From: a virus
Virus record (IMG/VR): IMGVR_UViG_3300029305_003176
Direction: 5' to 3' (one strand)
Length of the DNA stretch: 64,000 nt
In this document: piece by piece, positions 40,803 to 61,959 of the stretch
How positions within the stretch are numbered: position 1 is the first letter of the stretch
How the letters are laid out: each line of letters opens with the position of its first letter
Position numbers and translations under genes: made by a program
The notes under the pieces: generated by a model
The model's input: the letters and a program-made list of their open reading frames with translations, nothing else
Told to the model about the DNA's origin: nothing
The model's database searches: none

Positions 40803-41018
40803 ATGAAAATTTACCAAGTTGTTGAAATCGTAACACAATACATTGATGGATTCGATGGCAACCATGAATGGGAAGAAGAAATTAATAAAGGGCATTATTC
40901 CACAATGGAAAATGCTCAGGCAAAACTTAATGCTCTCACAGAATTACATTGGGATAGCAAATATAACTGTTGTAGCAGAGAGTTCAAAATAAAAGAAATT
41001 GAACTTGATGTAGAATAA
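40803..41018 (+). CDS. Hypothetical protein
   Basis: RBS GGAGG. Confidence 0.65.
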   Translation: MKIYQVVEIVTQYIDGFDGNHEWEEEINKGHYSTMENAQAKLNALTELHWDSKYNCCSREFKIKEIELDVE

Positions 41019-41031
41019 AACAATTATTTGA

Positions 41032-41250
41032 TTGGAAAGGCAGGTAATGATTATGAGAACTTTTATTTTTCCAAACGAATATGTACATCTAATTCAGATT
41101 CATAAAAGATATTTGAATAGACTTGAAAAACATATCCGAAAAACAATAAATCCAATAAAGAAAAACTCTTATAAAAAAGAGCTAAAACGTTGTAAACAGG
41201 CAATTACTTTATTAGAAGAAGAACTTAAGGAAAGATTCATGGATATGTAA
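41032..41250 (+). CDS. Hypothetical protein
   Basis: ORF between junction sites. Confidence 0.55.
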   Translation: MERQVMIMRTFIFPNEYVHLIQIHKRYLNRLEKHIRKTINPIKKNSYKKELKRCKQAITLLEEELKERFMDM

Positions 41251-41280
41251 ATAAAAACAATATTTGATGGAGGTGTAAAG

Positions 41281-41541
41281 ATGTATATTCCAGAACATTT
41301 TTTTAAAGCAGGTGAAGTGCAACGAAAATATGAAATACCGTGTTATTTTCCTAAAGAATATGCAAAAAAAGTTTTAAAAATGAAGCGAAGAGATATCAAA
41401 AAAATTGAAGTGTGCTACAATTTACCAAATATTGTAGACAGCCAGCCATTAGATATGGCAGATTATGTCCAATGTGACAAAATGTGTATTGTAATGGATA
41501 AATACAATGCTTTTCTGTTTCCATTGCAGAGAGTTAAGTAA
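41281..41541 (+). CDS. Hypothetical protein
   Basis: RBS GGAGG. Confidence 0.65.
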   Translation: MYIPEHFFKAGEVQRKYEIPCYFPKEYAKKVLKMKRRDIKKIEVCYNLPNIVDSQPLDMADYVQCDKMCIVMDKYNAFLFPLQRVK

Positions 41542-41575
41542 ATAAAAACAATTATTTGATTGGAGGTAAAGAAAA

Positions 41576-41908
41576 ATGAAAAGTGAAATGTTAATTAAAA
41601 TGGTTGATGGTGGATTAGTTAATTATGATGATGATAGTTACAAGATTGGTGGTTGTCCAACTTGTGATTATGGTAGTTCATACATCACGGAAATTGATAT
41701 GACTCTTACCAAGCATAAGATTCATATTAAAACAGACAAGATGTATGATTATGTTCTTTCTGAAGGAGATATGTTGAAATTGCTTTTATCTAATTATAAA
41801 GAAATTACAACAATGACTGAAAAGGAATTTGTTGATTGGCTTAAAGTTAAACTTCTGGAAATCGTAAGCAAAGATGAGTTGGAAAAATACAGTGTTGTTG
41901 AACTGTAA
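41576..41908 (+). CDS. Hypothetical protein
   Basis: GCPTCDYGS motif; RBS. Confidence 0.7.
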   Translation: MKSEMLIKMVDGGLVNYDDDSYKIGGCPTCDYGSSYITEIDMTLTKHKIHIKTDKMYDYVLSEGDMLKLLLSNYKEITTMTEKEFVDWLKVKLLEIVSKDELEKYSVVEL

Positions 41909-41941
41909 ATAAAAGAAATATTTGATTAGGAGGAAAATAAA

Positions 41942-42382
41942 ATGGCAGAATTGCATTTAAAAGGTTACTTATGTAACGACTATGACGGAATTATCGCATT
42001 GAATAACAAAAATCCAAACGAAAGCGAATATTCACAGTGTAGATATGGAGATTCAATTATCAGTAGTATTGAATCTTTTGCTTATGAACACGGAATGTTT
42101 GGCGAGCACAAAAAAGGTTTGGGTGGTCGCAAAGCTTTTATTGATGATTGCAATTTAAGAGCATATTTTACAACTGAAGAATGTGAACTTGAAGAAGCGA
42201 TGTTAGCGATGGATGTACTTATGTATGGTGGTGATATCAAAACAAGGGTTGATTGGTGTGGATATTCTGAATGGACTATTACTGGATTAGATTTAGAAGA
42301 GTTCTCTATTGGTGGACACGACTTAGAAAGCGAATTTAGAAGTCACTATGGACAGTATTGCCACATTATCATCGAATGCTAA
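41942..42382 (+). CDS. Hypothetical protein
   Basis: GYSEWTITG..IGGHDL; RBS. Confidence 0.7.
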   Translation: MAELHLKGYLCNDYDGIIALNNKNPNESEYSQCRYGDSIISSIESFAYEHGMFGEHKKGLGGRKAFIDDCNLRAYFTTEECELEEAMLAMDVLMYGGDIKTRVDWCGYSEWTITGLDLEEFSIGGHDLESEFRSHYGQYCHIIIEC

Positions 42383-42422
42383 TAGTAAAGAAAATAATAT
42401 TTAATAGATGGAGGTAAAGCAA

Positions 42423-42746
42423 ATGGGATTATTAGGAACCAATTTAAATATGAATGATCAAACAAAAACTGTAATTGCAGAAGTAATTGATAAAGAAGAT
42501 TGCTATGAAATCATATTTGTGTATGGTAATAATGAAGATTTTGACGTAGCACAGGCATTTTTATCAAATATGCCGATGCAGTTTAGCAAGGAAGGTATAA
42601 TTTTTCAATTACAAAAATTTAAATTTTATAGTGATTTCCCTATCTATACATGCCAGATTTCTCACAACGGCAATGTCATGAGCAGAGAAGAAGCGTTTGA
42701 AAAGATTCTTAATGCAACAGAACCTTGGGAGGGCAATAGTAAATAA
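42423..42746 (+). CDS. Hypothetical protein
   Basis: RBS GGAGG. Confidence 0.65.
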   Translation: MGLLGTNLNMNDQTKTVIAEVIDKEDCYEIIFVYGNNEDFDVAQAFLSNMPMQFSKEGIIFQLQKFKFYSDFPIYTCQISHNGNVMSREEAFEKILNATEPWEGNSK

Positions 42747-42776
42747 AAACAATATTTGATTAACGGAGGAACGGAA

Positions 42777-43004
42777 ATGACAGCAAGAGAATTTTGTTTA
42801 AAGAAAACACAAGTATCTGAATTATGTGTAATAAGAGATACTGGGTGGATTGTTGCTATTGTATGGATTGACTCAGAAGATTTATTTGCAATGAACGAAA
42901 CAATTGCAAAGATGGAAGTTAAATCTGATGAATGGGGCACTTTAAGTATCGTAACAAAACATGGTGACAAGCTTGAAGTTCCTTGTCACTATATTGATTG
43001 TTAA
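42777..43004 (+). CDS. Hypothetical protein
   Basis: RBS GGAGG. Confidence 0.65.
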   Translation: MTAREFCLKKTQVSELCVIRDTGWIVAIVWIDSEDLFAMNETIAKMEVKSDEWGTLSIVTKHGDKLEVPCHYIDC

Positions 43005-43036
43005 AATAAATCAACATTTTATTAGGAGGTCTAACT

Positions 43037-43237
43037 ATGAAAAATCTTTTAATGTTTGTGGCTTGGAATATAACAATAATAATTCTTATATTACTTAATT
43101 ATGCGACTGTAACTATAGGCGGTGAGACTCTGGGATTAGGAGATACGATTATCTATTTTTGCGGTATAGTATTTATTTATTACAATTATAGAAAAATAAT
43201 AGAAAAGAAAATAATTAAACATAAAATGGAGGTCTAA
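43037..43237 (+). CDS. Small two-TM membrane protein
   Basis: Two hydrophobic segments. Confidence 0.6.
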   Translation: MKNLLMFVAWNITIIILILLNYATVTIGGETLGLGDTIIYFCGIVFIYYNYRKIIEKKIIKHKMEV

Positions 43238-43239
43238 CT

Positions 43240-43449: not shown

Positions 43450-43462
43450 AAGGAGGCATATT

Positions 43463-44276: not shown

Positions 44277-45680
44277 ATGGTAAAGTTTAGTGAATTAAAA
44301 GAAAAATGGGCGTTTTGTTATACAGAAAGCCAATTATTAGACCTAATAAATGAAATGTATGAATTATGTATGTATTACGGGCATAGTGCTACAAAGTACG
44401 GTATCATGTGTGTGCTTGATAAATTCATTGATAATAAAAAGGAAAAGATTGAGCTACTTATGAAACACTCAGGGTACAACGGAAATCTACAAGTAGTTAC
44501 CGTAAAGGAATTTGTTAGAGACACTTCGGCAAGCGAAATATCTAACTTTGTCTATAAATTCCCCGACAAGATCAAATCAAAGAATAAGATAATTAAGAAA
44601 AATATTAATGGCGAAACTCTTGTAGATATTATCAAAAAGGAAATGACAAATATAAAAGTACTCAAGATTTCCGATATTGATAAGGTTAAAAATGATGTAA
44701 AGGTTAGTGGCAAATTCAATGATTATGGCGAAGTAAAAGAAAGTGTAATAATTCACTCAAAATATTTAAATGCTAACGACATATTTCGTTTCGAACATAA
44801 ATCTACATTAAGTGAATTGGCTGCAAGGAATTTAAATGATTATGTGCCAGAGCTTAAGGTTGTAAAAGATATGAAAACATCGAGAGCTTTTGGTAAGTTG
44901 TGTAATTACTTTAAACTAAACGAAGCACCAAATTACAATAAATTATACGCAGAATACTGTGATTTGGTAAGTGTATTAACGAGAAAGCTAAACTTTGTTA
45001 TTTCTCTTAATCCATTAGATTACTTAAAAATGAGTTTTGGTGTTAATTGGGCAAGTTGCCACACAATCGACATACATAATAAAAGACGTATGCCAGATAG
45101 TTATTCAGGTGGATATTGCGGTGGCACACTATCTTATATGTTAGATAAAAATTCCTTTGTAACATATGTTGTTCCAATCGAAGAGAAAAATGGTATTACA
45201 TCAACACAAAGACCAGACAGATGGGATAAGATATATAGAAATATGTTCCATTTGCAAGGGCAACAACTTATTCAGGGCAGAATTTACCCACAAGGCAAAG
45301 ATGGTGCAACAGATTTATACAAGGTAATGCGTTTTAATATGCAAGAAGCTCTGTGTGAAATGTGGGGTATTAATTATATTGATAGCGGTAACGGAAATGA
45401 TACTTGGGTGTCAAGAGGAAGCACAAAAGATAATACTTCTTGGTATAACACATTAGGATGTAACTATCAAGATTATAGATATTTTCGAGATTGTAATTTA
45501 TCTAAGGTAAGAAACTCCGACAATGACTTGCCAATAGAAATTGGACACGAACAAATAGATGTATTCTGTGGCGAATCACTTTCGGGCTGTTCTGGTAAAA
45601 TATCGCTTGGCGAAAGAAAAGCGGATTTACCAGATATGATTGCAGAAAAAACAAATTATACTACATATATTCCAAACTAA
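44277..45680 (+). CDS. Conserved phage protein, paralog 1
   Basis: SLNPLDYLKMSFGVNWASCHTID, SYMLD, QGRIYPQ. Confidence 0.75.
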   Translation: MVKFSELKEKWAFCYTESQLLDLINEMYELCMYYGHSATKYGIMCVLDKFIDNKKEKIELLMKHSGYNGNLQVVTVKEFVRDTSASEISNFVYKFPDKIKSKNKIIKKNINGETLVDIIKKEMTNIKVLKISDIDKVKNDVKVSGKFNDYGEVKESVIIHSKYLNANDIFRFEHKSTLSELAARNLNDYVPELKVVKDMKTSRAFGKLCNYFKLNEAPNYNKLYAEYCDLVSVLTRKLNFVISLNPLDYLKMSFGVNWASCHTIDIHNKRRMPDSYSGGYCGGTLSYMLDKNSFVTYVVPIEEKNGITSTQRPDRWDKIYRNMFHLQGQQLIQGRIYPQGKDGATDLYKVMRFNMQEALCEMWGINYIDSGNGNDTWVSRGSTKDNTSWYNTLGCNYQDYRYFRDCNLSKVRNSDNDLPIEIGHEQIDVFCGESLSGCSGKISLGERKADLPDMIAEKTNYTTYIPN

Positions 45681-45690
45681 ATAAAATTAA

Positions 45691-47520
45691 ATGGAGGATG
45701 ATATTATGATAATGGAAAAGAACGCAACTTACGAACTCTCACAAGAAGAAAGAGAATCGTTACGAAAGGAAATTATTGATCTTACAAGAGAATATCATTA
45801 CAACCCAACAGAAAGTGCTGTTGATAAGTTACTTGATGAATGGGTAAAGAATAATGGCTGGATGATTAATTTGTTTAAGAAACATCCAAATTATAATGGA
45901 AAGTATCAGATTGTATTTGACGCAAACTATCTACGAACAACTAACATAAATGAAATAAGGAATTTCTGCAATTGGATAATGTTTTATTGTTGCGAAGTGT
46001 TAGTACCAATGAAAATAAGTACATTCTCGTATATAGAAGTGTGTGACCATAGAAGTCGTGTTAAAGATATTTGTGACTATATGGAATTTTTAAAATCATA
46101 TGGGAAAAGTGTGGTTGTTGATGGAATGAGTCTTAGAGAATGGAGAAATGAGCTTAATAAATGGATCGCACTTAAGAAAAGATATGAATCTGAAACTTAT
46201 ATTTATGATGTTAGGGCATATACTGTAGAAAGTGGTAAAAAGAAAAAAGCTTTAGATGATCTTGCAAGAGTATTATATGACTATTATGACAATGTGATAA
46301 CAGAAGAGATTGCGGAAAGAGTAAACAATATTTATCAAGATATAAAGGCTGTTGCAGGACAGAAAACTTCAAAGCTTATGAGAAAGATATGTAAAAAACT
46401 TGATATAGATAAAGTTGTAAATTTTGAAAGAGAATTTGCAAAGTATGCAGATAGTATTAATCCAATAGAACTTACACGAAAAACAGTTCTTTCTTGTCAT
46501 CCTGTTGATTTCTTAACAATGAGCTTCGGAAATAGCTGGGCAAGCTGTCATACAATTGATAAGCGAAACGATAGAGGTATGCCAGATTCATACGAAGGGC
46601 AATATAGCTCAGGTACAATTTCTTATATGCTTGATGATACATCATTTGTGTATTACACAATAGATAAAGATTACAATGGAAATCAGCCAGAGTTGCAGCC
46701 AAAGATTAATAGAAATATGTTTCATATTGGCGAAGATAAATTAATACAAGGTAGAATTTATCCTCAAGGAAACGATGGAGATGACGGATTATATAAGCAA
46801 GTAAGAGAAATCGTACAAAAGGTAATTGCTGACTGCCTTGAAGTTCCTAATATGTGGAAAAATGTAAAGGGAACCAATGAATGTAGAAATATGACATCTA
46901 GCAAGGGAACTCATTATAGAGATTATACTTCTTTTTCAAGTTGTAATGTATCTTATTTAAAGGATACAGATGGGAATATTAACACTATTTATATCACAGT
47001 GGGACACGATCCAATTTGTATACAATGTGGACGAACTCATAACTGGTCGGATGCTATTGAATGTAGTAGTTGCTACGATGGTATTTTTATTTGTGCAGAT
47101 TGTGGTTGCGAAGTAGATGAAGAAGATGTGATAGAAATAAATGGCGAATACTACTGTAGAGATTGTTGTAGTTACTGCGACTATCATGAGCAATATGAAA
47201 GAGAAGAACTTACATATGTAAATAATTATGGCTATGTATGCGATAGTGGTTTGGATAATGATGATTTTGATTATTGTGAGAGATGCGAGCAATGGTTTTA
47301 TGATAATGAAGAGGGTTTTAGCACAGCAGACGGATTATGGTACTGTTGTGAAGAACATGTAAGAAATGACGGCTATGAAATGACAGAAGATGGCGAATGG
47401 TACCCAGAAGATGAGGTGCATTATTGTGAGATTTGCAAGAGATATGTTCACGAAGATAACTGGAATGAAGATGAAGATTGTTGTAACGATTGTGCAACAG
47501 AAGAAAGAGAGGCGATTTAG
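45691..47520 (+). CDS. Conserved phage protein, paralog 2 with C-terminal Cys-rich repeats
   Basis: SCHPVDFLTMSFGNSWASCHTID, SYMLD, QGRIYPQ; many CxxC motifs. Confidence 0.75.
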   Translation: MEDDIMIMEKNATYELSQEERESLRKEIIDLTREYHYNPTESAVDKLLDEWVKNNGWMINLFKKHPNYNGKYQIVFDANYLRTTNINEIRNFCNWIMFYCCEVLVPMKISTFSYIEVCDHRSRVKDICDYMEFLKSYGKSVVVDGMSLREWRNELNKWIALKKRYESETYIYDVRAYTVESGKKKKALDDLARVLYDYYDNVITEEIAERVNNIYQDIKAVAGQKTSKLMRKICKKLDIDKVVNFEREFAKYADSINPIELTRKTVLSCHPVDFLTMSFGNSWASCHTIDKRNDRGMPDSYEGQYSSGTISYMLDDTSFVYYTIDKDYNGNQPELQPKINRNMFHIGEDKLIQGRIYPQGNDGDDGLYKQVREIVQKVIADCLEVPNMWKNVKGTNECRNMTSSKGTHYRDYTSFSSCNVSYLKDTDGNINTIYITVGHDPICIQCGRTHNWSDAIECSSCYDGIFICADCGCEVDEEDVIEINGEYYCRDCCSYCDYHEQYEREELTYVNNYGYVCDSGLDNDDFDYCERCEQWFYDNEEGFSTADGLWYCCEEHVRNDGYEMTEDGEWYPEDEVHYCEICKRYVHEDNWNEDEDCCNDCATEEREAI

Positions 47521-47521
47521 T

Positions 47522-48592: not shown

Positions 48593-48639
48593 AAATAAAG
48601 AAAAGACAGTTTTTGAACCAAGATGAAAATTTGTTGTTA

Positions 48640-51862: not shown

Positions 51863-51911
51863 AAGGTAACAACCAAACCCGCATTTTATTAAGAGAAAAG
51901 GAGAACAAACA

Positions 51912-52235
51912 ATGAAAAGATATTTGCTTAATGTAACATTTTACGCAGGAAGTAATGATATAGAAGATACAGACCGAGATTTGTTTTTACTCTGTATTGA
52001 TAAAGAAATTAGTGAAAAAGAAATGACTGAGATTTTTAGAACTGTCAATAAACTTCTTGACTATTTTGACGATGAAGAAAAAGATTTTCCTATTTCTTAT
52101 GAGCAAGGATTAAATATCAATACTCTTATGGAAGGCATCGGAATTTATACAAAGGGAGAAGTTAAAGAAGTGTATAGTAATTTTGGTCATTTGCAAGAGA
52201 TTGACAATTATTATGTGATTGAACAGTGGCAGTAA
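51912..52235 (+). CDS. Hypothetical protein
   Basis: RBS. Confidence 0.65.
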   Translation: MKRYLLNVTFYAGSNDIEDTDRDLFLLCIDKEISEKEMTEIFRTVNKLLDYFDDEEKDFPISYEQGLNINTLMEGIGIYTKGEVKEVYSNFGHLQEIDNYYVIEQWQ

Positions 52236-52248
52236 ATGGAGGTAAAAG

Positions 52249-52476
52249 ATGTATTTAATATATAAGAGAAAAGACGGTACGATTGAAGATTGTGTATACA
52301 GAGGAGGTTGCGGTGGAATTGAAGTTGCTACTGGAGGCGATTTCAGAAAAGGATATATTACATTTCCAAAAGAAAAGTTTGAAGAGTTGTTTATGTCTGG
52401 TGCAATTAAAGTGTTAAAACATAAACCAAAAGAGGATTTATGCGATTATTTGAAACACTTAAAAGCAAATGACTAG
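52249..52476 (+). CDS. Hypothetical protein
   Basis: RBS. Confidence 0.6.
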   Translation: MYLIYKRKDGTIEDCVYRGGCGGIEVATGGDFRKGYITFPKEKFEELFMSGAIKVLKHKPKEDLCDYLKHLKAND

Positions 52477-52530
52477 TTCAATTACAAAAATAAATAAAAT
52501 CCATGTTTGATTATGAAAGGAGCTTGAATT

Positions 52531-52935
52531 ATGGTAACACTAGAACAGTTGGTCAAAAAACAAAAATGGAATGAAATGAGTGATATTCAAATCATTAAAG
52601 AATTCTTCGACTTAAATAATTTAGAAGAAGAAGGAATGGATTTGATACACGAATTAACAAGAACTAAAATTGAAAAAATGAAACAAAAACATCGAACGTC
52701 GGAAGAATGGGTTTGTATGTTACCATCCAAATATCTGTATGAAAATTACGACTTAGATATTGCAGACAGACTTCATACTCTTGAACTTAATTATCTTGTA
52801 AATGGTGGAAAACTTTCTAAAGGTCATCTGAAATGGGCAACAGAAAACATTCCTAACATTGTAAGACCTCAAGCATATTTTAACCCACTTGTAGAATGGT
52901 TAGAAAATGAGGGAATTAGATTTAAAGCAAGATAA
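52531..52935 (+). CDS. Hypothetical protein
   Basis: RBS. Confidence 0.65.
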   Translation: MVTLEQLVKKQKWNEMSDIQIIKEFFDLNNLEEEGMDLIHELTRTKIEKMKQKHRTSEEWVCMLPSKYLYENYDLDIADRLHTLELNYLVNGGKLSKGHLKWATENIPNIVRPQAYFNPLVEWLENEGIRFKAR

Positions 52936-52967
52936 AATTCGTGTTTGATTAGGAGGTAAGCATAATT

Positions 52968-53429
52968 ATGAAATTAAAAGATTATGAAAAATTCGATGAA
53001 TATGCAAGAGAGGTTATGAACTACTTTCGTGAGTTAAAAAAGGAAAGGGAATTAACCAGAGAAGAAGAACGGTTAATGCTTCATTCTTTAACAATGAGAA
53101 CAATTGCTCATTCTGCTCAATCTAAACATATGGATAAGCAGGAAGCAGTAAGACAGAGCAACAGAGAAAAGCAAAGAGATGCATTATTTGCTAGTTCTAA
53201 AATTGTATATGAAGGGTTTGTTGATGATATCTATGAGCCAGTATATGCTTCAGATTACAAGGAACTTCGCAAAAAAATGTCTAAATACGCAAATCTTTAT
53301 CCGAAAGAAAAAGATATGGCAACTGTGAATACTTATGAGAATGGAGAACTAATTAAAAAGGAAATATGGGTCAGAGAAAACACATTATGTAATGAAATAT
53401 GGTCTTTTGGGAAATGGGATATTTCTTAA
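52968..53429 (+). CDS. Hypothetical protein
   Basis: RBS. Confidence 0.65.
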   Translation: MKLKDYEKFDEYAREVMNYFRELKKERELTREEERLMLHSLTMRTIAHSAQSKHMDKQEAVRQSNREKQRDALFASSKIVYEGFVDDIYEPVYASDYKELRKKMSKYANLYPKEKDMATVNTYENGELIKKEIWVRENTLCNEIWSFGKWDIS

Positions 53430-53445
53430 TACAGGAGGTAATTAT

Positions 53446-53658
53446 ATGAAGATTGTTAAAGTTAAGGAATTTCGAAATGATATGTCTGCTTTACCGTGCC
53501 CGTTTTGTGGAGAAACAGAAGAAATTTACTTTGAAGAATATGAAACTAAAGTAGGCGAGAGGTGGCGTATTGTATGTGCTAAATGCATGGCTAATATTGA
53601 TAGAGGATATGACCAAACACCGCATCCATTAGTGGAATTGTGGAACAAGAGAAAATAA
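53446..53658 (+). CDS. Lar-family restriction alleviation-like protein
   Basis: LPCPFCG..CAKC..WNKR. Confidence 0.7.
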   Translation: MKIVKVKEFRNDMSALPCPFCGETEEIYFEEYETKVGERWRIVCAKCMANIDRGYDQTPHPLVELWNKRK

Positions 53659-53686
53659 AATTTGTATTTGATATGGAGGTAAAACA

Positions 53687-53923
53687 ATGGGTATTAAAAG
53701 AAAAATCGAATTAACTTTCTACAGTTTGTTTTCTATTGTAACTTTTCACAAATATTATATTTGTGAAGATTGTCACAAGATTCATAAGCGAACCGGAAAT
53801 GAATTTGAAGTATGTGGTGGATGGTATAAACCACATGTATTTGTGTCATATAAATGTGCAAATGAAGTAATTAGTAACAGTAGAAAACTTTTACGTGACG
53901 CAGCATTAAAAAGATGGAAATAA
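53687..53923 (+). CDS. Hypothetical protein
   Basis: RBS. Confidence 0.6.
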   Translation: MGIKRKIELTFYSLFSIVTFHKYYICEDCHKIHKRTGNEFEVCGGWYKPHVFVSYKCANEVISNSRKLLRDAALKRWK

Positions 53924-53951
53924 AAATTATATTTGATGGAGGCAAAATACA

Positions 53952-54929
53952 ATGTTAGAGATATATCTACAAGAAACTGATTATGAACATGGAAATGATT
54001 GTTTAATACAGAATTGTTATACAATTCTCAAATGTCATGATAAATACATCACAATGAATATCAGAAGATATAAAGGCTGGTGCGACAATGGTATGCCGGT
54101 AGTAGTAACAAACAATACTACAACTAACGATCCAATTCTTAATCAGATTATTGAGGATGGATATGTAAGAAATACAAAGCTACATAGAAGATGGGTTATG
54201 GCACAAATGTTCCACATGCTTGATTACGAAAGTTACAAGAAAGACGGGCACGGTCGTTATAATAGAACAGAAACTGGTTATGACGCTTGCCTGAGAAATA
54301 ATTACGGATATATGTATCAATTCGATATGATGCTTGAGGAAATTCGTATTCTTAGCAAGTTAGAAGATAGAGATATGGAGAGTTTCAATGAGAGAAGCCA
54401 TTTCTTTACAAAGAATGTTGTCGTTGATACTTGTACTGATTATTTAAAGAATCTTCAAATATATGTTGATAGCCTTAAAGAATATAAGTGCAAGGGAGTT
54501 CCTTATAAGAAGGTAAAAGGAAAAAATATCTTTGTATCTGATTTATATAAGAAATTATATTATCCAATTAATATGTCAATTAATCGAATTGGAAGAACAA
54601 AGAACTATAAAGAATTATATAGAGAACTTAGAATTTTCAATCGAAATATGATTAAGTTGCCTTGGGAAACTAAGAAATGTAGAAGTTGGATTGACGCATT
54701 TAAGGGAAATGGTGCGTATTACACATTAAAGAACTTAGTTATGTATCATAACTGCAAGATTTATAACAGAGATGATGTTCATGCAGGAATAGATGCTGTA
54801 AAGTTTATACAGTCTAGACTTGATGACTATTTAGGAGAAGGCTGGAGATATATGGCAATGCTTAAGAAATGTATTGCAGATAATAAATTCAGTTTTAACG
54901 AGGCAATGGATGAGATTTATAACAAATAG
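53952..54929 (+). CDS. Basic 325-aa protein of unknown function preceding the structured-repeat array
   Basis: LHRRWVMAQMFHML, CKGVPYK, WIDAFKGNGAYYTLKNLVMYH. Confidence 0.8.
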   Translation: MLEIYLQETDYEHGNDCLIQNCYTILKCHDKYITMNIRRYKGWCDNGMPVVVTNNTTTNDPILNQIIEDGYVRNTKLHRRWVMAQMFHMLDYESYKKDGHGRYNRTETGYDACLRNNYGYMYQFDMMLEEIRILSKLEDRDMESFNERSHFFTKNVVVDTCTDYLKNLQIYVDSLKEYKCKGVPYKKVKGKNIFVSDLYKKLYYPINMSINRIGRTKNYKELYRELRIFNRNMIKLPWETKKCRSWIDAFKGNGAYYTLKNLVMYHNCKIYNRDDVHAGIDAVKFIQSRLDDYLGEGWRYMAMLKKCIADNKFSFNEAMDEIYNK

Positions 54930-54950
54930 AACTAAGTAAAAAAATAAACT

Positions 54951-55099
54951 TGATGCAAAGCAAGTATAACAACTGTTTAGATTTAATTATATACGCTATC
55001 AGTCCAGAAGAAGATACGACTTAATCCTTATCAGGATTAATTTCGTATCCTATTCTGGATATAGCGATATAAATATGAAACTAATAAAGATATGCATTA
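54951..55099 (+). ncRNA. ~150-nt structured element, copy 1
   Basis: Closing stem TGATGCA/TGCATTA; TTAATTAT-hairpin-AATATGAAAC. Confidence 0.7.
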
Positions 55100-55132
55100 A
55101 GAACAGACGTTATATTTAGGAAGGAGATTATT

Positions 55133-55435
55133 ATGAGACATGCAGTTATGATAGTAAGGTGTGGATTTAAAATCCGTAAGAAGGCAGATATTACTGAATT
55201 TATGAATAAATGTATGCAGAATAAGAACGTGTATTGTGTGCAAACAGAGGATAAGACATTGTATTTCGAAAAAGATGATAATGGAGATTTTAGCGTGTCA
55301 GAGAAGCAAGATGGCTGGGTGAGTCTTGAGGTCGCTAGAACTAACAACGGTAGCTGTTATAAAGACACCGTTGAGGATTTAATATGGAAGTATAGGAAAT
55401 ATATTAATGAACAATGGTTGAATCCTAGAAATTAG
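55133..55435 (+). CDS. Hypothetical protein
   Basis: RBS AAGGAG; IWKYRKYIN. Confidence 0.65.
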   Translation: MRHAVMIVRCGFKIRKKADITEFMNKCMQNKNVYCVQTEDKTLYFEKDDNGDFSVSEKQDGWVSLEVARTNNGSCYKDTVEDLIWKYRKYINEQWLNPRN

Positions 55436-55445
55436 GAACTAGTGC

Positions 55446-55598
55446 GGAAAGGGCAAATATATATTAAGCACTCAAAAATTAATTATCCCGTATATTAACC
55501 TGTATGCCATGCCCGCTACGCAGCTTATCAGACTGCATATCGGGACATTCTATACAGGCATCTATCGGGAGAATATGAAACTTATAAAGAAACTTTCT
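55446..55598 (+). ncRNA. ~150-nt structured element, copy 2
   Basis: Closing stem GGAAAG/CTTTCT; TTAATTAT-hairpin-AATATGAAAC. Confidence 0.7.
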
Positions 55599-55674
55599 AA
55601 GAGTGAACAATATGTAAAACTAAATAAAATTATTAAAGAAGAGATTATTATACTGGTTGAAAAGGAAATAAATT

Positions 55675-55983
55675 ATGATAGATAAAAGAATTAAATTTGA
55701 TGAAAGATACGATGACGAAGATTATAAAACTACTACATTGTATTTTATAGCACCCAAAGAAATGTTAAAAACAATAATGACAAATGATTATCCCGATGCG
55801 GTATCTATGGAAATTAGTATTGAATTTCCAATGGGATATATTGATGCGACATATGCAGATGTTTGCGTGTCTCCTACGTCATACGACAAAGAAACAAATA
55901 GTTATTATGAGTATGATTGGTATTATATTGATATGCCATATAACGAGATTAATGAGCTGATATTATTAGCAGAAAGGAGTTGA
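55675..55983 (+). CDS. Hypothetical protein
   Basis: Acidic ORF with RBS. Confidence 0.65.
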   Translation: MIDKRIKFDERYDDEDYKTTTLYFIAPKEMLKTIMTNDYPDAVSMEISIEFPMGYIDATYADVCVSPTSYDKETNSYYEYDWYYIDMPYNEINELILLAERS

Positions 55984-55987
55984 TAAT

Positions 55988-56395
55988 ATGGAACCATTAA
56001 CGTTTAGGATGTATGCAGGAGTTAGAATGAGTCGTGCTATTGATCCAAATACAGATTTCATTTCTCCGGGCGGGTACGAAATGATAATGAATGGAAAGAA
56101 AATACCATTTGATTTTGAAATTTTTATTGGTGGCAGATGCCCTATTGATTATTCGTTATTAGAAATTGAACTTAAAAATCCAATGTACGATGAGTATCCA
56201 GACTTGAATAGTATCACAGAGGATATGCTTAATAATGTTACAGAGATTACAGAGTTCTTTGTATATACGGGAGAGATAGGCGAAACAGATTTAAAACCAA
56301 TATCATTAGAATATGTGAGCTTTGTATTACCTTATGAATGGAAAGAAATTGAAGTTCCTTTAGAGATAGTAAAAGCAGCGAATGTAACATTTTAA
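55988..56395 (+). CDS. Hypothetical protein
   Basis: SPGGYEM..PFDF; RBS. Confidence 0.65.
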   Translation: MEPLTFRMYAGVRMSRAIDPNTDFISPGGYEMIMNGKKIPFDFEIFIGGRCPIDYSLLEIELKNPMYDEYPDLNSITEDMLNNVTEITEFFVYTGEIGETDLKPISLEYVSFVLPYEWKEIEVPLEIVKAANVTF

Positions 56396-56407
56396 GCAAC
56401 AAACAGA

Positions 56408-56557
56408 TAGATACTGTAAATATGTAAGGCAAATTTAACTTTAATTATCTTCCTTATTATATATGAGCTGCAGGTAATTAGTCTGGATAACACCAGCCTC
56501 AGTACCTGCTCCTCATCTCTTAAGGAAGCTAATATGAAACTATTAGAGATATATCTA
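56408..56557 (+). ncRNA. ~150-nt structured element, copy 3
   Basis: Closing stem TAGATA/TATCTA; TTAATTAT-hairpin-AATATGAAAC. Confidence 0.7.
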
Positions 56558-56578
56558 CAGATTTGCAAAGCATATTGT

Positions 56579-56737
56579 TTATAGACGGACAGATATATAA
56601 GGTTCAATTATTTAATAATAGGTCTTCTTTAACAATTGTATGAACGAACTATTCAACGAGATTACATCTCAATTTCATTAGTTCGTGATGACAATCGACA
56701 GAAGAAATTATATGAAACATATAAAGACAGTCTATAA
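56579..56737 (+). ncRNA. ~150-nt structured element, copy 4
   Basis: Closing stem TTATAGAC/GTCTATAA; TTAATAAT-hairpin-TATATGAAAC. Confidence 0.7.
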
Positions 56738-56760
56738 GAGAAATGAATATATCATTGGTA

Positions 56761-56913
56761 TAAGCAGCTAGATATACAAGAGGAATTTATTTATTCAAAC
56801 GGTAAGATGATAGCTAATCTCCAGGATTAATTTCAGGATGATATCCTGAATAATAATCCTGGATATCAAGCTCCACTTGACCGTTTCAAATGAAACAATT
56901 ATAGAAATGCTTA
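56761..56913 (+). ncRNA. ~150-nt structured element, copy 5
   Basis: Closing stem TAAGCA/TGCTTA; TTATTTAT-hairpin-CAAATGAAAC. Confidence 0.65.
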
Positions 56914-56963
56914 CGAATTTTTTGAGTATGTCAAATAAGATACAGAAGAAAGGAGAGTTGATT

Positions 56964-57152
56964 ATGAAGTTAAACAATAATATAAAATTTAGAGATGCAG
57001 AAAAAATATTAAAAAGAAATGGTTTTGTATATGATAAAACTAGAGGAAGTCACCATCAATATGTTAGAAATGGTATAAGAATTGTAGTAAATAAAAATAT
57101 AAACCCTTGTGTATGGCTTCGATTAGTAAAAGAAAATAACTTGGAGGTATAA
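56964..57152 (+). CDS. hicA: HicA-family toxin/RNase (no adjacent HicB)
   Basis: 62 aa; ILKRNGF..RGSHHQY; RBS AAGGAG. Confidence 0.8.
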   Translation: MKLNNNIKFRDAEKILKRNGFVYDKTRGSHHQYVRNGIRIVVNKNINPCVWLRLVKENNLEV

Positions 57153-57156
57153 GATT

Positions 57157-57345
57157 ATGTTAGAAGAAATTTACAAATTATTAGGCTATGAAGATGTATT
57201 TTCAATTGAGAGTAAAGAAGTAAGAGATTACACAGTAGACAAAGCACACAATCATTTAATGGGTGTTTTGTTGAAATGTAAAGCATTGGGAATTGTAACC
57301 GGTGTAAATGAAGATAGACTTGATGAGATTGAAAGTGAAGAATGA
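57157..57345 (+). CDS. Small acidic hypothetical protein
   Basis: RBS GGAGG; no HicB motifs seen. Confidence 0.6.
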   Translation: MLEEIYKLLGYEDVFSIESKEVRDYTVDKAHNHLMGVLLKCKALGIVTGVNEDRLDEIESEE

Positions 57346-57378
57346 AATAGTGAGTTGATAAGAAAGGAGATACATATT

Positions 57379-57708
57379 ATGAAGAGATTTGATTTACCAG
57401 CAATGAGTGATAAGGCAAAAAGTTTTTATAACAAAGCAATTGTAATTGAGCAAGACAATGGTGACATTGAATTACAAAGCTACACTACAATCGTATGCAG
57501 AATTAGAAACGGAAAGTTTGAGAGATTATGGGGCGGATATTCAAGTACAACAATGAGACATATCAATTCTTTTCTTAAATTCTACGGAATTTCAGGTGGT
57601 GGAAAGGGTTGGTGGAATAAGTTGGAAGTTGTTGGGAAAAGAAATAATGATTATTTAACTCCAACCGAATCGTTACAAATTATGTATGCAAGAAGAAACG
57701 CAGGTTAA
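57379..57708 (+). CDS. Hypothetical phage protein
   Basis: LQSYTTIV..YSSTTMRHI. Confidence 0.7.
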   Translation: MKRFDLPAMSDKAKSFYNKAIVIEQDNGDIELQSYTTIVCRIRNGKFERLWGGYSSTTMRHINSFLKFYGISGGGKGWWNKLEVVGKRNNDYLTPTESLQIMYARRNAG

Positions 57709-57739
57709 TAGAAACACAATTTGATTAGGAGGAATTGGT

Positions 57740-57904
57740 ATGGAAATTAGATTAGAAGAAACATTGTGGATTATTAATGACGGAGAATATTTCATAGGCG
57801 ATGGAGAGTCAACTGCATATGTTGTAAGCGACTACGATGGAGAAACAGTTTATTCACATGATGATTTTGAACGTTGTTTAAATTGGGTTTGGAATAGTTT
57901 ATAA
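57740..57904 (+). CDS. Small protein (54 aa)
   Basis: RBS AGGAGG; lies between junction sites. Confidence 0.6.
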   Translation: MEIRLEETLWIINDGEYFIGDGESTAYVVSDYDGETVYSHDDFERCLNWVWNSL

Positions 57905-57931
57905 AGTGTGATTTTAAGTGGAGGAATTAAT

Positions 57932-58180
57932 ATGATTAAAGCTGGAAATGAAATTTGGTTTGAGGTTGGAGATAAAGTGAGAACTCAACCGGCTAAATAT
58001 TTTACTGATTATGCAAATAGTGTTTATGCAAATAGAAACGCAACTGTAATTGATGAAAATAATCATTGTGGGTTATACACAACATATAAGATTAGATTTG
58101 ATGAACCTTTTTATGACCACGGATATAAAGTGGAAACAATGTATTACGAAGCATTTCAAGACGGTTTAGTTTTAAGATAA
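57932..58180 (+). CDS. SH3/KOW-like small protein
   Basis: FEVGDKVR. Confidence 0.6.
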   Translation: MIKAGNEIWFEVGDKVRTQPAKYFTDYANSVYANRNATVIDENNHCGLYTTYKIRFDEPFYDHGYKVETMYYEAFQDGLVLR

Positions 58181-58219
58181 TAAAATAATGATTTTAACAG
58201 TAGATTGGAGGAATATTTT

Positions 58220-58483
58220 ATGAACATACAAAATTGGAACGAAGAGAGAATTGATGAAGTAATTTATGATTTAGAAGAGTGGATGACACTTGTTGCGTAT
58301 GAAGAAGATTGGTTAACCACAGAGGACGATGATATAATTGAAATCTTTGGTTCAAAAGCAAATTATCTTGAACAACTTATTGATTGGGTGTATGAACACG
58401 TATGCTCTGAAGATATAGATAATGTGGACTTTTGGGTAAGTCACGGATTTACAGAAGAAGAAGCACAAGAAATGTGTCAATAA
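58220..58483 (+). CDS. Acidic hypothetical protein
   Basis: RBS GGAGG. Confidence 0.65.
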   Translation: MNIQNWNEERIDEVIYDLEEWMTLVAYEEDWLTTEDDDIIEIFGSKANYLEQLIDWVYEHVCSEDIDNVDFWVSHGFTEEEAQEMCQ

Positions 58484-58519
58484 ATACACAATTTCAAAGC
58501 AGAAACGGAGGAAATAGAT

Positions 58520-58702
58520 ATGGATGTATATAAAGAATTTGATACAAAATGTCAGCAGAAGGGTTTGTTTGAAGTGTTTAAAACTCAAAGTCAATCAACA
58601 TATTTTCTTATGAGAAGAATGTTTGATGAAAAGAAAATTAAATACTTAGGAATCGGTGATGATTGGAATGGAAAATATGAAATTAGATTTTCTATTCATT
58701 AA
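58520..58702 (+). CDS. Hypothetical protein
   Basis: RBS. Confidence 0.6.
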   Translation: MDVYKEFDTKCQQKGLFEVFKTQSQSTYFLMRRMFDEKKIKYLGIGDDWNGKYEIRFSIH

Positions 58703-58742
58703 TGGAATCAGGATTTTAACAAGAAAAATGGAGGAATGAATT

Positions 58743-59081
58743 ATGAATATTGATTATAACAAAGTATCATTTAATGAGTTGGATATGGAATATCCATTAC
58801 AAGCATTCTTTAACTACGAAACAACGCAAGAGGAAATTTCTGAATGGTTAGCAAACGAAGTTACTTGTGATGAAATTCCAGAAGAAATTTCTATCGTTGG
58901 AATAGAATTGTGTTTGACTATTTTTGGCAGACATGATTTTAAATTAGAAGCAGTTTGTACAAGTGATGGTGGTAATCAATTTTGGGTAGAGTTAGATAAT
59001 CAATTAGCTAATGCAGATGAATTTATCTCATTAATACCTGATTATGGAAAGATTAAACTAGAGGATTTACCGAGAGCATAG
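58743..59081 (+). CDS. Acidic hypothetical protein
   Basis: RBS. Confidence 0.65.
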   Translation: MNIDYNKVSFNELDMEYPLQAFFNYETTQEEISEWLANEVTCDEIPEEISIVGIELCLTIFGRHDFKLEAVCTSDGGNQFWVELDNQLANADEFISLIPDYGKIKLEDLPRA

Positions 59082-59115
59082 GGCAATAGATTCGGAATTC
59101 AAAGGAGGAATTAAT

Positions 59116-59286
59116 GTGGTAAATAAGACAATAAAACAAATCATCGAAGAGAACAAAGATAAGGAAGTACATTTATATGACACATTTGGAACTTGGGGCG
59201 AATTGCCTTTAACAGAAAATAATATACAACATACACCCGATGCTATAGAAATCAATGATAATGTAATAAAAATTTATATCGGATAG
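59116..59286 (+). CDS. Small protein (56 aa)
   Basis: GTG start after AAGGAGG. Confidence 0.55.
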   Translation: MVNKTIKQIIEENKDKEVHLYDTFGTWGELPLTENNIQHTPDAIEINDNVIKIYIG

Positions 59287-59305
59287 ACGGATAGGAGAAA
59301 ATAAT

Positions 59306-59548
59306 ATGACGATTAGAATTTATAACGTAGAAACAAAGGAAGTTATTCATGAGTTTGAATTAAGCAACAGAATTAAAAAAGAAGAGTCTATTTTTAAAAA
59401 AGTAAAAGATGAATTAAGAATAAAATACAATAAGGAACCAAGACTTATATTTAGTGGCGAGTTTGATTTTAGTACAAGAACTTATAGTAATGACAGTGGA
59501 TATATTAATAATTTAGGCATTGGAAAGATTGATTATGTAAGAGTTTAA
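59306..59548 (+). CDS. Hypothetical protein
   Basis: RBS. Confidence 0.6.
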   Translation: MTIRIYNVETKEVIHEFELSNRIKKEESIFKKVKDELRIKYNKEPRLIFSGEFDFSTRTYSNDSGYINNLGIGKIDYVRV

Positions 59549-59560
59549 GGAGAAAGCGAT

Positions 59561-59785
59561 ATGAAAAATTTAGGTTTAACAGTAAATGAGTTATTGAAAT
59601 TATGTAAAGAACAAGTTAAGAAAGGAAATGGTAATAAACACATAATTATTTCTAATGATGATGAAGGAAATAGTTATCATACATTATTCTATGCGTTTAC
59701 AGATGACGCAGAAAATTTACAGTATATTTTAGAAAATGAGCATGACGGAACTCATACGGTTGATAATTGCGTGTGTTTGGGTTGA
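59561..59785 (+). CDS. Hypothetical protein
   Basis: SNDDEGNSYH motif. Confidence 0.65.
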   Translation: MKNLGLTVNELLKLCKEQVKKGNGNKHIIISNDDEGNSYHTLFYAFTDDAENLQYILENEHDGTHTVDNCVCLG

Positions 59786-59818
59786 TAAAACAAAGTTTTA
59801 CGATTGGAGGTATAAAAA

Positions 59819-60001
59819 ATGAAAAATATAAAAAAAGTTACAAGTGAACAGAAGAAAATCTTAAATAATGCAGAGTGTATTTTATATACTTGCAAAAATG
59901 ATTTAGGCAATTTCATAGAAAAAGAAGTTATAAAATATAATGGAAAGTATTATAGAGTGCAAACAACTAATAAATTTGTAACCGAATTTATAGAAGTGTA
60001 A
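59819..60001 (+). CDS. Hypothetical protein
   Basis: RBS. Confidence 0.55.
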   Translation: MKNIKKVTSEQKKILNNAECILYTCKNDLGNFIEKEVIKYNGKYYRVQTTNKFVTEFIEV

Positions 60002-60115
60002 ATAGAATTATGTAGAACAAAATAACAAGTAAACAAAATTATTTTTTAGTGTAGACAAAAAAAGAAATAAATGGTAAAATAAGATAAAATAAGATATAAG
60101 AAAGAAGGAATACCT

Positions 60116-60877
60116 ATGGGATTATTCGGAATGTTGTATATGACTATTATGGGTTTTGGTGCGGCCGGTCATTCTATAAAGCAAAGTATAAGAGATGACG
60201 AAAGTAGAGAGAGAGCTAAAAGAATGGGAAATAAAACATATATTTCTAGTACCGGAGAAAGAAGTGTTGAGACAAACAATCGTATAGTTTGTAAAACTTT
60301 GCCGAATGGAGATTTTGCCCATGTAGATGAAAGAACTGGAAAAGTTTATATTAATTTTGACGCTGGGGAAAGAAATAGAAAAGAAAGATTTAGAGAAGAA
60401 TTTAGACAGAAGGCTGCAAGAGCAAAAGAGATAGCTATTGCAAAAGGCGATGTTGTATATTCTGGTTGGTATTGGAAAGAGGGGCCTTATACAAATGGAG
60501 GAATACCTGCAAGTGTGCTCAGATTGGTTGAGAACGACATGCCTTTACGTACTAATAATTATGCTGTCAATGTTTATGGGGATATAAGGGACTATAATTT
60601 GGATTTATATTACAAAAAACCTAAAGAAGAATATTGTAAACCACCATTTAATATACTTATAGCTTTCCATGCATTTGATAAAGATATAAAAGAAATTAAT
60701 TCTACAAGATTGGTAAACTATATTGAGAGTTATAATTTGAATGAAATGTTAGAGTATTGTAAAAAATATAACATACCAATATATGAAGAAGAAAAAATAA
60801 TAGAAATGTTAAATGAAAAATATCCTTTAGAATCTTGGAAAGATAATAATACGAAAACGAAAAAATTATTTTGGTAG
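60116..60877 (+). CDS. Hypothetical protein with hydrophobic N-terminus
   Basis: Own promoter TAGACA..TG-TAAAAT at about 60052-60080. Confidence 0.7.
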   Translation: MGLFGMLYMTIMGFGAAGHSIKQSIRDDESRERAKRMGNKTYISSTGERSVETNNRIVCKTLPNGDFAHVDERTGKVYINFDAGERNRKERFREEFRQKAARAKEIAIAKGDVVYSGWYWKEGPYTNGGIPASVLRLVENDMPLRTNNYAVNVYGDIRDYNLDLYYKKPKEEYCKPPFNILIAFHAFDKDIKEINSTRLVNYIESYNLNEMLEYCKKYNIPIYEEEKIIEMLNEKYPLESWKDNNTKTKKLFW

Positions 60878-60972
60878 AAAGGGACAAACTATTATGAATA
60901 AAGATAGAAGAACAAAAATATCCGAAATTATGGAGATAGAGCAATTAGAGAACATTTAAGGAGATGGGTTGA

Positions 60973-61959
60973 ATGAATGGTAATCAAGCGTATAAGAATC
61001 AACATCAGAGAAAAATAGATAAGCTACTTGAAAATAATCAAGATAAAAAATATCTTAAGGGATTTTATAATTATATATCTAATAGTTTATCTCTTTCAAC
61101 CATATATGATTACATAAGCTATGTAATAAATTTTATGAATTTCAATCAAAAAAGCGTTGAAGATATTACTTTAGATGATTACACAGAATTTTTATCTCAA
61201 ATAAAAGATATGACTCCATCATATCAAATAACGGTATATTCAGGATTAAAAAAATTCTCAACATATTTATTGGCAAGTAAAAGAAATATGGATAATGCCA
61301 TGGCATATATCTCTCGACCAAAATACAGCGAAGATATAACTACTATTGAAAAAAGAGAGAAGGGATATTTAGATAAAAAAGAAATTAAAAAATATATAGC
61401 AACCGTTCAATCTGGAACAGGAAGTAATAAAGCTATAGCAAGACAGGAGAAATGGAAAAATCGTGATATGCTAATAGTATTATTATTATTGACTACCGGG
61501 ATGAGATGTTCTGCGTTATATAAAATTGATGTAGATAGTATTGATGTAGATACAAAATGTTTATATGTAACCGACAAAGGTTCAAAGATAAATAAGTATA
61601 ATTTGCCCGAAGAAATAATAAAATGTTATTTAGAGTGGATTAAAGAAAGGGATAAATTAGATGTGTCTCAAAATGAGAAAGCTCTCTTTATTTCAAATCA
61701 AAAAACACGTATGGATCAAAGTTCTATTAGTAGAGTTGTTAATAAATATTCAAAAAATATAGATGGAAAACATATTACCCCTCATAAACTTAGAGCTACA
61801 TATGGAAGTCAGTTGTATAAACAAACAAAAGATTTATTCTTTGTTCAAAAATGTATGGGACATAGTAATCCAAAAGTAACAGAGCTTTATATTAGAGATG
61901 GGAACAAAAACGATAGAAAGAATGCTGCAATTATAATGAGCAGTGCAATTTTTAATTAA
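60973..61959 (+). CDS. Tyrosine recombinase (YopP/SroD-like position)
   Basis: TGMR, DKGSK, PHKLR, MGHS, TELY: full R-K-HxxR-H-Y set. Confidence 0.9.
   Translation: MNGNQAYKNQHQRKIDKLLENNQDKKYLKGFYNYISNSLSLSTIYDYISYVINFMNFNQKSVEDITLDDYTEFLSQIKDMTPSYQITVYSGLKKFSTYLLASKRNMDNAMAYISRPKYSEDITTIEKREKGYLDKKEIKKYIATVQSGTGSNKAIARQEKWKNRDMLIVLLLLTTGMRCSALYKIDVDSIDVDTKCLYVTDKGSKINKYNLPEEIIKCYLEWIKERDKLDVSQNEKALFISNQKTRMDQSSISRVVNKYSKNIDGKHITPHKLRATYGSQLYKQTKDLFFVQKCMGHSNPKVTELYIRDGNKNDRKNAAIIMSSAIFN

Follow-up and report, generated by a model that had tools for sequence, protein, structure and literature searches.

The virus record IMGVR_UViG_3300029305_003176 of IMG/VR, a stretch of 64,000 nucleotides (nt) that we refer to as the window, carries arrays of small accessory genes in which the junctions between consecutive open reading frames (ORFs) are marked by copies of a short inverted repeat, hereinafter the linker. 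The linker motif is real, and whereas its two outer boxes are generic, the 6-nt core between them (N6) is specific to the position in the array, an observation that is new here. The linkers are conserved collinearly in other phages, with unrelated cassettes between them, and breakpoints between related phages fall at linkers. The explanation that we favor, with confidence somewhat above even, is that the linkers are joints for the exchange of single ORFs between related phages and, in addition, likely a binding site for a protein.

The consensus of the linker is AATAAAA-N6-TTTGAT, followed after 0-5 nt by GGAGG and about 7 nt further by ATG. The 21-base element has the organization of a 7-6-7 quasi-palindrome, given that the same sites score, more weakly, on the minus strand, where the matches are these sites read backwards. 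A previous reading of this DNA (the sequence-only reading) had listed about 20 such junctions and suggested a comparison with shuffled DNA, which bears the motif out: the window contains 9 exact matches to TAAAA-N6-TTTKAT against 1.67 expected, a number reached in none of 100 dinucleotide shuffles, and all eight of the matches that are located on the plus strand lie at gene junctions. With a 21-nt weight matrix trained solely on the sites of two other phages (L015 and G001) and a threshold of 12 bits, 13 matches were obtained on the plus strand of the window, ten of them above 17 bits, compared with 2.2 per strand in the shuffles (maximum of 5 on the plus strand and 6 on the minus strand). Twelve of the listed junctions are strong (near 41017, 41251, 41542, 41909, 42389, 42743, 43006, 51874, 52494, 52933, 53656 and 53921) and the one at 57709 is moderate (14.4 bits); those at 57902, 58181, 58481, 58703, 59087 and 59786 are degenerate and fall below the threshold, although some have counterparts in relatives, and the one at 57343 is not convincing. 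The spacer between the boxes, previously given as 6-7 nt, is constant at 6 nt, with N7 only at 41542.

In agreement with the earlier description of a motif that begins at a stop codon and ends shortly before a ribosome-binding site, the left box overlaps or abuts the upstream stop codon, often containing it, and the distance from the right box to the Shine-Dalgarno sequence is 0-1 nt in 45 (63%) of the 72 non-redundant sites that we pooled from several phages. Some left boxes are not associated with a stop codon, namely, the one at 52494 in the window and those of sites that follow gaps of 200-490 nt in the phages G003 and G005. Upstream of the left box, the pooled sites show no conserved sequence, including no -35 element. 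As noted in the sequence-only reading, the motif is not evident at structural genes: a sense-oriented match precedes none of the 41 structural and replication genes of the minus strand, and the matches located within 30 nt of a start codon are invariably in the sense orientation. The linker junctions showed no sigma-70-like promoters and the stretch from 40.8 to 54.9 kb no terminators, and therefore the arrays are located inside long operons; the enclosed cassettes are promoterless, co-oriented and mostly consist of a single ORF, as was also claimed previously. Several other interpretations of the motif were considered and rejected. An RNA hairpin is not in keeping with the lack of covariation between the boxes or with the A:G mismatch seen in most of the pooled sites (42 of 72); a sigma-70 promoter would require -35 and -10 elements that are missing; and the window holds no second copy of the specific cores, the structured-RNA region at 54951-56913 included, as a guide RNA would. 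Extended Shine-Dalgarno pairing was rejected in view of the 16S 3' tail, and the linker does not seem to fit the consensus sequences of IHF, CodY or cre.

Relatives of the phage, designated here by handles such as L015 and G001, were collected via a 604-amino acid (aa) protein, the tyrosine recombinase discussed below and a reverse transcriptase, as well as by motif scans. Across up to six records (the window, L015, G001, L262/G006, L131 and L185), ten core types reappear in one and the same order. In array 2 of the window (51870-53938, plus strand), the order is CCCGCA (51870), TCCATG (52492), TTCGTG (52930), TTTGTA (53653) and ATTATA (53918), and these five linkers bound seven ORFs of 70-153 aa that precede a gene for a 325-aa protein (53952-54929). 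The same series is embedded in the longer one of L015 (ACCTTA, CCAACA, CCCGCA, TCCATG, TTCGTG, TTTGTA, ATTATA, GTTTCA, TTCTAC), and parts of it are found in G001 (ACCTTA, CCAACA, CCCGCA, ATTATA, GTTTCA), L262/G006 (ACCTTA, CCAACA, (TACATA), TTCGTG, TTTGTA, ATTATA) and L185 (CCCGCA, TCCATG, TTCGTG, TTTGTA). Array 1 (41013-43023, plus strand) consists of seven linkers (21-mers from 41013, 41249, 41539, 41907, 42387, 42741 and 43003), each followed by one ORF of 66-146 aa (41047-43237). Orthologous CAATTA and ACAATA linkers are present in L015 and L131, and near-identical ACAATA-type cores occur in six linkers of the window compared with two at this place in L015 and L131, as would be expected if insertion of a cassette duplicated the joint. 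Array 3 (57706-59803, plus strand) is weaker, with one moderate linker at 57706 and six degenerate ones at about 57899, 58178, 58478, 58700, 59084 and 59783, the right boxes of which read TTTTAA, TTTCAA or ATTCAA; the ORFs between these linkers encode 54-112 aa. The TCGGAA core of the 59084 linker recurs in G001 and in L342.

The phages that share these cores are distant from each other, the identity of the 604-aa protein to that of the window being 55% in L015 and approximately 31% in L185. Between the window and L015, nucleotide similarity within the arrays is limited to patches of 19-38 bp at the junctions (84-100% identity), and matching linkers enclose different numbers of ORFs, the products of which vary in length and have Smith-Waterman z scores of about 0 compared with 24 for a control pair. 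Ungapped comparisons of 41 orthologous junction pairs give 28-33% identity for the flanks, 80% for the left and 87% for the right box and 44% for the 10 nt that follow the right box; beyond position +43 identity is at the background, to which it drops over some 20 nt from the linker. Seven of the 12 window cores recur exactly and in order in L015; in unrelated junction pairs, 39% of the core positions are shared. Conserved orthologs agree at just 36-49% of their four-fold-degenerate sites, so that the cores would not have survived neutral drift.

Furthermore, cassettes can be followed from one linker to another. The 130-aa protein L015_16126 corresponds to G001_32059 (78% aa identity), which is encoded after a different core, and L015_18521 corresponds to G001_33114 (69% aa identity), a second cassette found behind different linkers. 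In the nucleotide alignments of these shared cassettes, homology sets in at the right box and extends through the stop codon and the following left box. The window cassette at 52531-52935 (plus strand), which encodes a protein of 134 aa between the TCCATG and TTCGTG linkers, belongs to a widespread family that is located behind a TCGGAA-type linker in L342, and its homology with L342 and L343 spans only the ORF, from about the start codon to the stop codon or left box. With 532 homologs at 64-97% identity, this cassette is far better conserved than the core genes of the phage. The linker-preceded genes as a group are poorly shared, with homologs in six relatives for one of 19 compared with 14 of the 41 other plus-strand genes (p = 0.023). 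Collectively, these comparisons suggest that the array behaves as a set of swappable cassettes on a conserved linker scaffold. They also support the cassette-like array of the sequence-only reading, with collinear linkers, unrelated ORFs between them, the same ORF behind different linkers, and homology between relatives that starts and stops inside the motif or at its edge.

A related palindrome, TAAAA-N6-TTTTA, is present in phage SPbeta, in 14-15 exact copies within 40.7 kb, among others at the yoqC/D, yoqD/E, yoqG/H, yoqX/Y and yoqY/Z junctions, where several copies overlap stop codons. Palindromes at yoq/yor junctions of this genome (L437, NC_001884) are located at 24720, 25532, 26245, 27046, 31040, 33775, 34209 and 38144, and in the aimR and yorE regions palindromes are flanked by the upstream terminator on one side and the SPBRE operator on the other. 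We aligned SPbeta with phi3T and Goe12 and counted the breakpoints of homology within 25 nt of a TAAAA-N6-TTTTA palindrome. Nine of the 32 breakpoints are that close, against 1.3 expected at random positions, for which 9 was not attained in any of 2000 trials, and 3.8 expected at random gene junctions (P = 0.012). Several breakpoints are located inside a palindrome, at the boundary between arm and core or at its edge, and among the replaced blocks yoqH-I is bounded by palindromes on both sides and yoqE-F on the left.

From these observations, we infer the mechanism of recombination, the binding of a protein and the reason for the conservation of the cores as follows. The linkers, of about 21-35 bp, would be inter-cistronic elements of long co-directional operons of small accessory genes, in which the series of cores forms a scaffold of fixed order while the ORFs between the linkers are replaced, added or lost. 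Co-infecting or resident relatives would swap single ORFs at the linkers, most likely by short-homology recombination between identical linkers, the mechanism proposed for comparable elements of other phages (see below). Homology exchange of this kind could account for the collinearity, the sharp islands of identity, the moves of cassettes via shared boxes and the duplication of a joint. Frequent use of the joints, together with the survival of those cassettes that have intact arms, might keep linker sequences uniform across lineages, although this is an argument rather than data. To judge by its two-fold symmetry and fixed spacer, the linker is likely also bound by a dimeric DNA-binding protein.

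Several points weigh against joints for exchange. Patches of 21-35 bp offer little homology for homologous recombination to proceed efficiently; the persistence of position-specific cores across very distant phages is explained only by the above argument; and the tight coupling to the Shine-Dalgarno sequence could reflect a primary role in expression. The core identity of 99% across the 41 junction pairs is partly circular since the junction types were defined by their cores, and the actual support comes from how many cores are shared exactly and in collinear order. The remaining 23 of the 32 SPbeta breakpoints are not at palindromes, which are therefore preferred joints rather than exclusive ones. 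Near-identical strains (L010-L012, ENA gene tables) display no cassette difference, and the number of recombination events observed is zero.

Some of the alternatives to short-homology exchange involve the genes at the end of the window. A Xer-like tyrosine recombinase (60973-61959, plus strand; Pfam PF00589 at 7e-29) is encoded approximately 1 kb downstream of the last array, co-oriented with the arrays, as the first gene of a yopP-yopQ-mrpR-like module. Its catalytic residues R178, K202, H271, R274, H297 and Y306 are all retained, as the sequence-only reading had noted, and it matches the XerA, XerS, XerC and XerD models of NCBIfam, in each case below the cut-off. Orthologs are present in G001 and G006/L241. 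The protein has no BLAST similarity to SPbeta YopP, with which it is equated by position only. The second gene (62015-63235, plus strand) encodes a YopQ-like protein with 27% identity to SPbeta YopQ (E 3e-16) and a weak DndB/ParB-like match (PF14072 below its cut-off); it is preceded by a conserved sigma-A-like promoter, that is, one located after the recombinase gene. The third (63250-63999, plus strand, cut by the end of the window) encodes an MrpR (YopR)-like protein (PF22822, MrpR_N_CB, at 1e-13) with a recombinase-type core-binding domain, and the protein aligns with YopR. Its G006 ortholog matches YopR of phi3T (E 2e-10) and SPbeta (E 8e-6), and the full-length orthologs from G006 and G001 stop before the HxxR...H...Y segment of catalytic recombinases. 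An assignment of this gene as a plasmid-resolution recombinase was dropped, the Pfam name being traceable to the SPbeta repressor MrpR. The three-gene module is conserved in the window, G001 and G006/L241, and homology to SPbeta was detected for the second and third genes only.

These final three genes follow the yopP-yopQ-yopR order of the lysogeny-management operon of SPbeta. Because of this order and the YonV_C domain found in one protein, we read the phage as a distant SPbeta-like phage, of roughly 137 kb, from a low-GC host. Kohm et al. (2023, PMC10516654) count yopP, yopQ and mrpR among the core genes of SPbeta-like phages and regard their expression in lysogeny as probable; in the passage concerned, yopP is listed only as such a conserved gene, and no role is ascribed to it. 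The same paper describes MrpR as the master repressor of SPbeta, a protein of recombinase fold with ten binding peaks, all of them at promoter regions that contain an SPBRE.

The best surviving alternative, to which we nevertheless assign a rather low probability, is that the linker is purely an expression signal or operator, that is, the site of a phage regulator, be it a recombinase-fold repressor of the MrpR type or another dimeric protein, or a translation or processing signal tied to the Shine-Dalgarno sequence, and that its association with variable genes is incidental. Apart from the 0-1 nt distance to the Shine-Dalgarno sequence in 63% of the 72 sites, such a role would fit the occurrence of the motif before genes that follow long non-coding gaps and its dispersal in the distant phages G003 and G005. 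The proven operator of SPbeta MrpR, SPBRE, is likewise a short palindrome, several copies of which directly precede a Shine-Dalgarno sequence (PMC10516654), and an MrpR-like protein is encoded in the window. However, a shared operator leaves both the ordered, position-specific cores and the enrichment of breakpoints unexplained, and the motif has neither the upstream -35 element of a promoter nor the covariation of left and right boxes typical of an RNA hairpin. Furthermore, SPBRE as read from the regions upstream of SPbeta aimR, yorE, yonX, yopV and yopM is a palindrome of the ATACA-N7-TGTAT type, different from TAAAA-N6-TTTTA, and the ten MrpR peaks reported in that paper are all at SPBRE promoter regions. 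The window itself contains a separate 15-bp palindrome (GTTTAGTAACTAAAC, GTTT[A/C]GTNAC[T/G]AAAC), with seven copies on the plus strand of the promoter- and terminator-bearing early region (36691-39511) and an eighth at 47658, that is, eight matches against 0.05 expected (repeat families D1, D2 and D6). This palindrome, which was also observed before early genes in G001/L120, appears to be a better analogue of SPBRE than the linker and is a candidate operator of the MrpR-like repressor. Since SPBRE differs from the linker and the 15-bp palindrome fits better, the linker is probably not an MrpR-type operator.

Somewhat less probable still, in our judgment, is site-specific exchange, under which the 7-6-7 dyads would be core sites of the Xer-like recombinase at the YopP position. 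As strand exchange needs identical overlap regions, only linkers with the same address would recombine. We accordingly consider it unlikely, to the same degree, that SPbeta-like phages possess a natural cassette-exchange system in which ordered heterospecific dyad sites and the YopP-position recombinase permit swaps position by position, with no scrambling or deletion. The inverted arms around a constant 6-bp spacer are as expected of such sites, and the core is the best-conserved part of the linker, as a requirement for overlap identity would explain; indeed, site-specific exchange explains the conservation of the core and the dyad geometry at least as neatly as homology does. Some SPbeta breakpoints lie inside the palindrome or at the arm/core boundary, an intact recombinase is encoded downstream of the arrays in the window, G001 and G004, and such recombinases are present in every SPbeta-like phage tested. 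The last fact is double-edged: PF00589 proteins were found in 10 of the 10 relatives tested, motif-rich and motif-poor alike, and co-occurrence is uninformative because every relative has one. Recombinases and linkers do not co-vary, the former being present where linkers are few or absent (L143, L260, L245-L261 and the downstream region of G006), and no linkers were found within 10 kb upstream of the recombinase orthologs or paralogs in L143, L260 and L245-L261. Also contrary to this scheme, the conserved part of each arm is only 6-7 bp; the identical direct-repeat linkers at 41249 and 42741, 1.5 kb apart, are stably kept, in an independent sample as well; linkers with different cores can precede one and the same cassette; the recombinase gene has no linker or dif-like site next to it, the conserved stretch there being the sigma-A promoter; and the recombinase gene is part of a lysogeny-management module. 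Thus, the connection between the sites and the 60973 recombinase, put forward as unproven in the sequence-only reading, is not supported: nothing ties the two together, the module is of the lysogeny type, and linker-poor relatives have recombinases too.

A chance pattern of AT-rich intergenic DNA, produced by a TAA stop codon, an A/T-rich spacer and a ribosome-binding site, might be suggested by the 31% GC content of the window, the frequent location of the stop codon within the left box and the closeness of the weak array 3 sites to background, but is highly improbable, being rejected by the shuffle tests, already refuted for the 12 strong sites and at odds with the absence of the motif before 41 minus-strand genes of the same composition, the left boxes located away from stop codons (52494, G003 and G005) and the exact 6-nt cores that are collinear in other phages.

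Joints for single-ORF exchange have partial counterparts among the known elements of phage genomes. Short conserved sequences at the gene junctions of lambdoid phages, known as boundary sequences, have been proposed to target recombination, and the stoperators of cluster A mycobacteriophages are orientation-dependent repressor sites that overlap stop and start signals. The linkers have in common with both that they are short, conserved and located in the very narrow gaps between genes of a phage operon; to our knowledge, neither boundary sequences nor stoperators have been described as ordered, position-specific variants around unrelated genes. The PeSLs (promoter-early stem-loops) of T4-type phages are short conserved elements that separate small non-essential ORFs in variable regions. 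Indels and replacements map to them, and Arbiol et al. (2010, PMC2839356) and Comeau et al. (2014, PMC4122927) have proposed that they supply the homology for a shuffling of modules. The coincidence of breakpoints between related phages with the linker (9 of 32 in the SPbeta clade) is similar; however, the linker is a much smaller element, a dyad of 21 bp that merges with the stop codon and the Shine-Dalgarno sequence and has no sigma-70 promoter or terminator hairpin, and, in contrast to PeSLs, copies of which are all alike, each linker copy has a position-specific core that is ordered across distant phages. With SPBRE (Kohm et al. 2023, PMC10516654), the linker shares the form of a repeated short palindrome that is often located right before the Shine-Dalgarno sequence. 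SPBRE is bound by a protein with a tyrosine-recombinase fold, and the window encodes an MrpR-like protein, but the sequences differ, SPBRE is located in about ten promoter regions rather than ORF-ORF junctions, and SPbeta carries TAAAA-N6-TTTTA in addition.

The sequence-only reading had likened the array to an integron. Co-oriented, promoterless, single-ORF cassettes, imperfect inverted repeats and a nearby tyrosine recombinase are indeed common to both, but the comparison fails in other respects. The 60973 protein scores 48 bits against the IntI model TIGR02249 (cut-off 265) and 27.6 against NF011946 (cut-off 435), its best matches being of the Xer type; in place of a folded single-strand attC of 57-141 bp, there is a conserved island of about 21 bp with boxes that do not covary; no attI or Pc lies beside a divergent integrase; and the linkers, each with its own core, are not interchangeable. 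In their two inverted arms and constant 6-nt spacing, the linkers resemble the dif/lox core sites of tyrosine recombinases. They also resemble the heterospecific lox and FRT sites of engineered cassette exchange, which have identical arms and different spacers, so that each site pairs solely with its own kind and cassettes are swapped one position at a time in unchanged order, a likeness that is formal only.

How phages turn over small accessory genes while keeping their operons functional is only partly understood, and the linker provides a concrete, sequence-defined joint, the position-specific addresses of which outlast nearly all protein similarity. The phage group concerned is very large and associated with low-GC hosts, the 604-aa marker alone having more than 2000 homologs. 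Given that a related palindrome is located at junctions and breakpoints in the genetically tractable phages SPbeta and phi3T, both the mechanism and a regulatory role are directly testable. The linkers could also serve as landmarks for hypervariable, possibly counter-defense, cassettes in metagenomic phage genomes.

The anti-defense function of the cassettes put forward in the sequence-only reading is a plausible conjecture; among the 20 linker-flanked proteins tested, the single Pfam match was that of a Lar-like restriction-alleviation protein encoded at 53446. The 325-aa protein encoded after array 2 aligns only with the C-terminal 276 residues of a conserved 430-aa protein of L241 (3908-5200; 67% identity). 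Its N-terminus is new and begins immediately downstream of the ATTATA linker, a pattern that would be expected if this joint were the end point of a deletion or replacement. In L342, genes for a radical-SAM protein and an NAD-synthase/QueC-like protein (1-1498) are located just upstream of the 134-aa cassette, which may point to a pathway for modified bases in these phages. In L185 (17369-18707), there is a second array with linkers of another family (GATAAACTGA, one variable base, TTTTAG and then a ribosome-binding site), and those of L344 are of the AATAACGATTTAG type; therefore, linker families differ between arrays and phages. At 52330 and 52351, inside the gene at 52249-52476 and about 150 nt before the TCCATG linker at 52492, lie the ends of two JGI contigs that come from different samples and match the window at 100% and 99.99% identity, a coincidence from which we draw no meaning.

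Motif scans differed in their yield. The generic motif gave mostly single chance matches in IMG/VR, but also L073, L104, L106 and L120, and a viral scan for the TTTGTA junction produced one new relative, L030/L185. A scan of JGI metagenomes with a 20-nt junction pattern returned 43 matches, none with a ribosome-binding site in place, and these were read as chance.

With respect to the rest of the phage, a megablast search of the region against GenBank phages gave no close relative. The genes of the window up to about 36 kb, on the minus strand, include those for the portal protein, terminase, exonuclease, PhoH and homing endonucleases, the portal being approximately 25-30% identical to those of large siphophages of Bacillota, and from 36.7 kb to the end of the window there are about 60 plus-strand genes, mostly small. 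An exact copy of the 604-aa protein (45706-47520) is found on contigs of up to 137 kb, and its family has more than 2000 members. This protein and one of 467 aa (both within 44277-47520) are paralogs from a very large phage family with many invariant residues, a Cys-rich C-terminus and no Pfam domain. A gene for a 62-aa HicA-toxin-like protein, with homologs in G001 and G006, is followed by a second gene of 62 aa (56964-57345). Finally, in two of the relatives, a linker array is followed by a gene for a 420-aa reverse transcriptase (RVT_1; L015 19428-20687 and L262 3846-5108) that is absent from the window and shows sub-threshold matches to group II intron and retron-type enzymes. The two copies are 92.6% identical, compared with 61-72% for the neighboring genes, and more than 300 relatives of this reverse transcriptase are encoded in other gut phage contigs.

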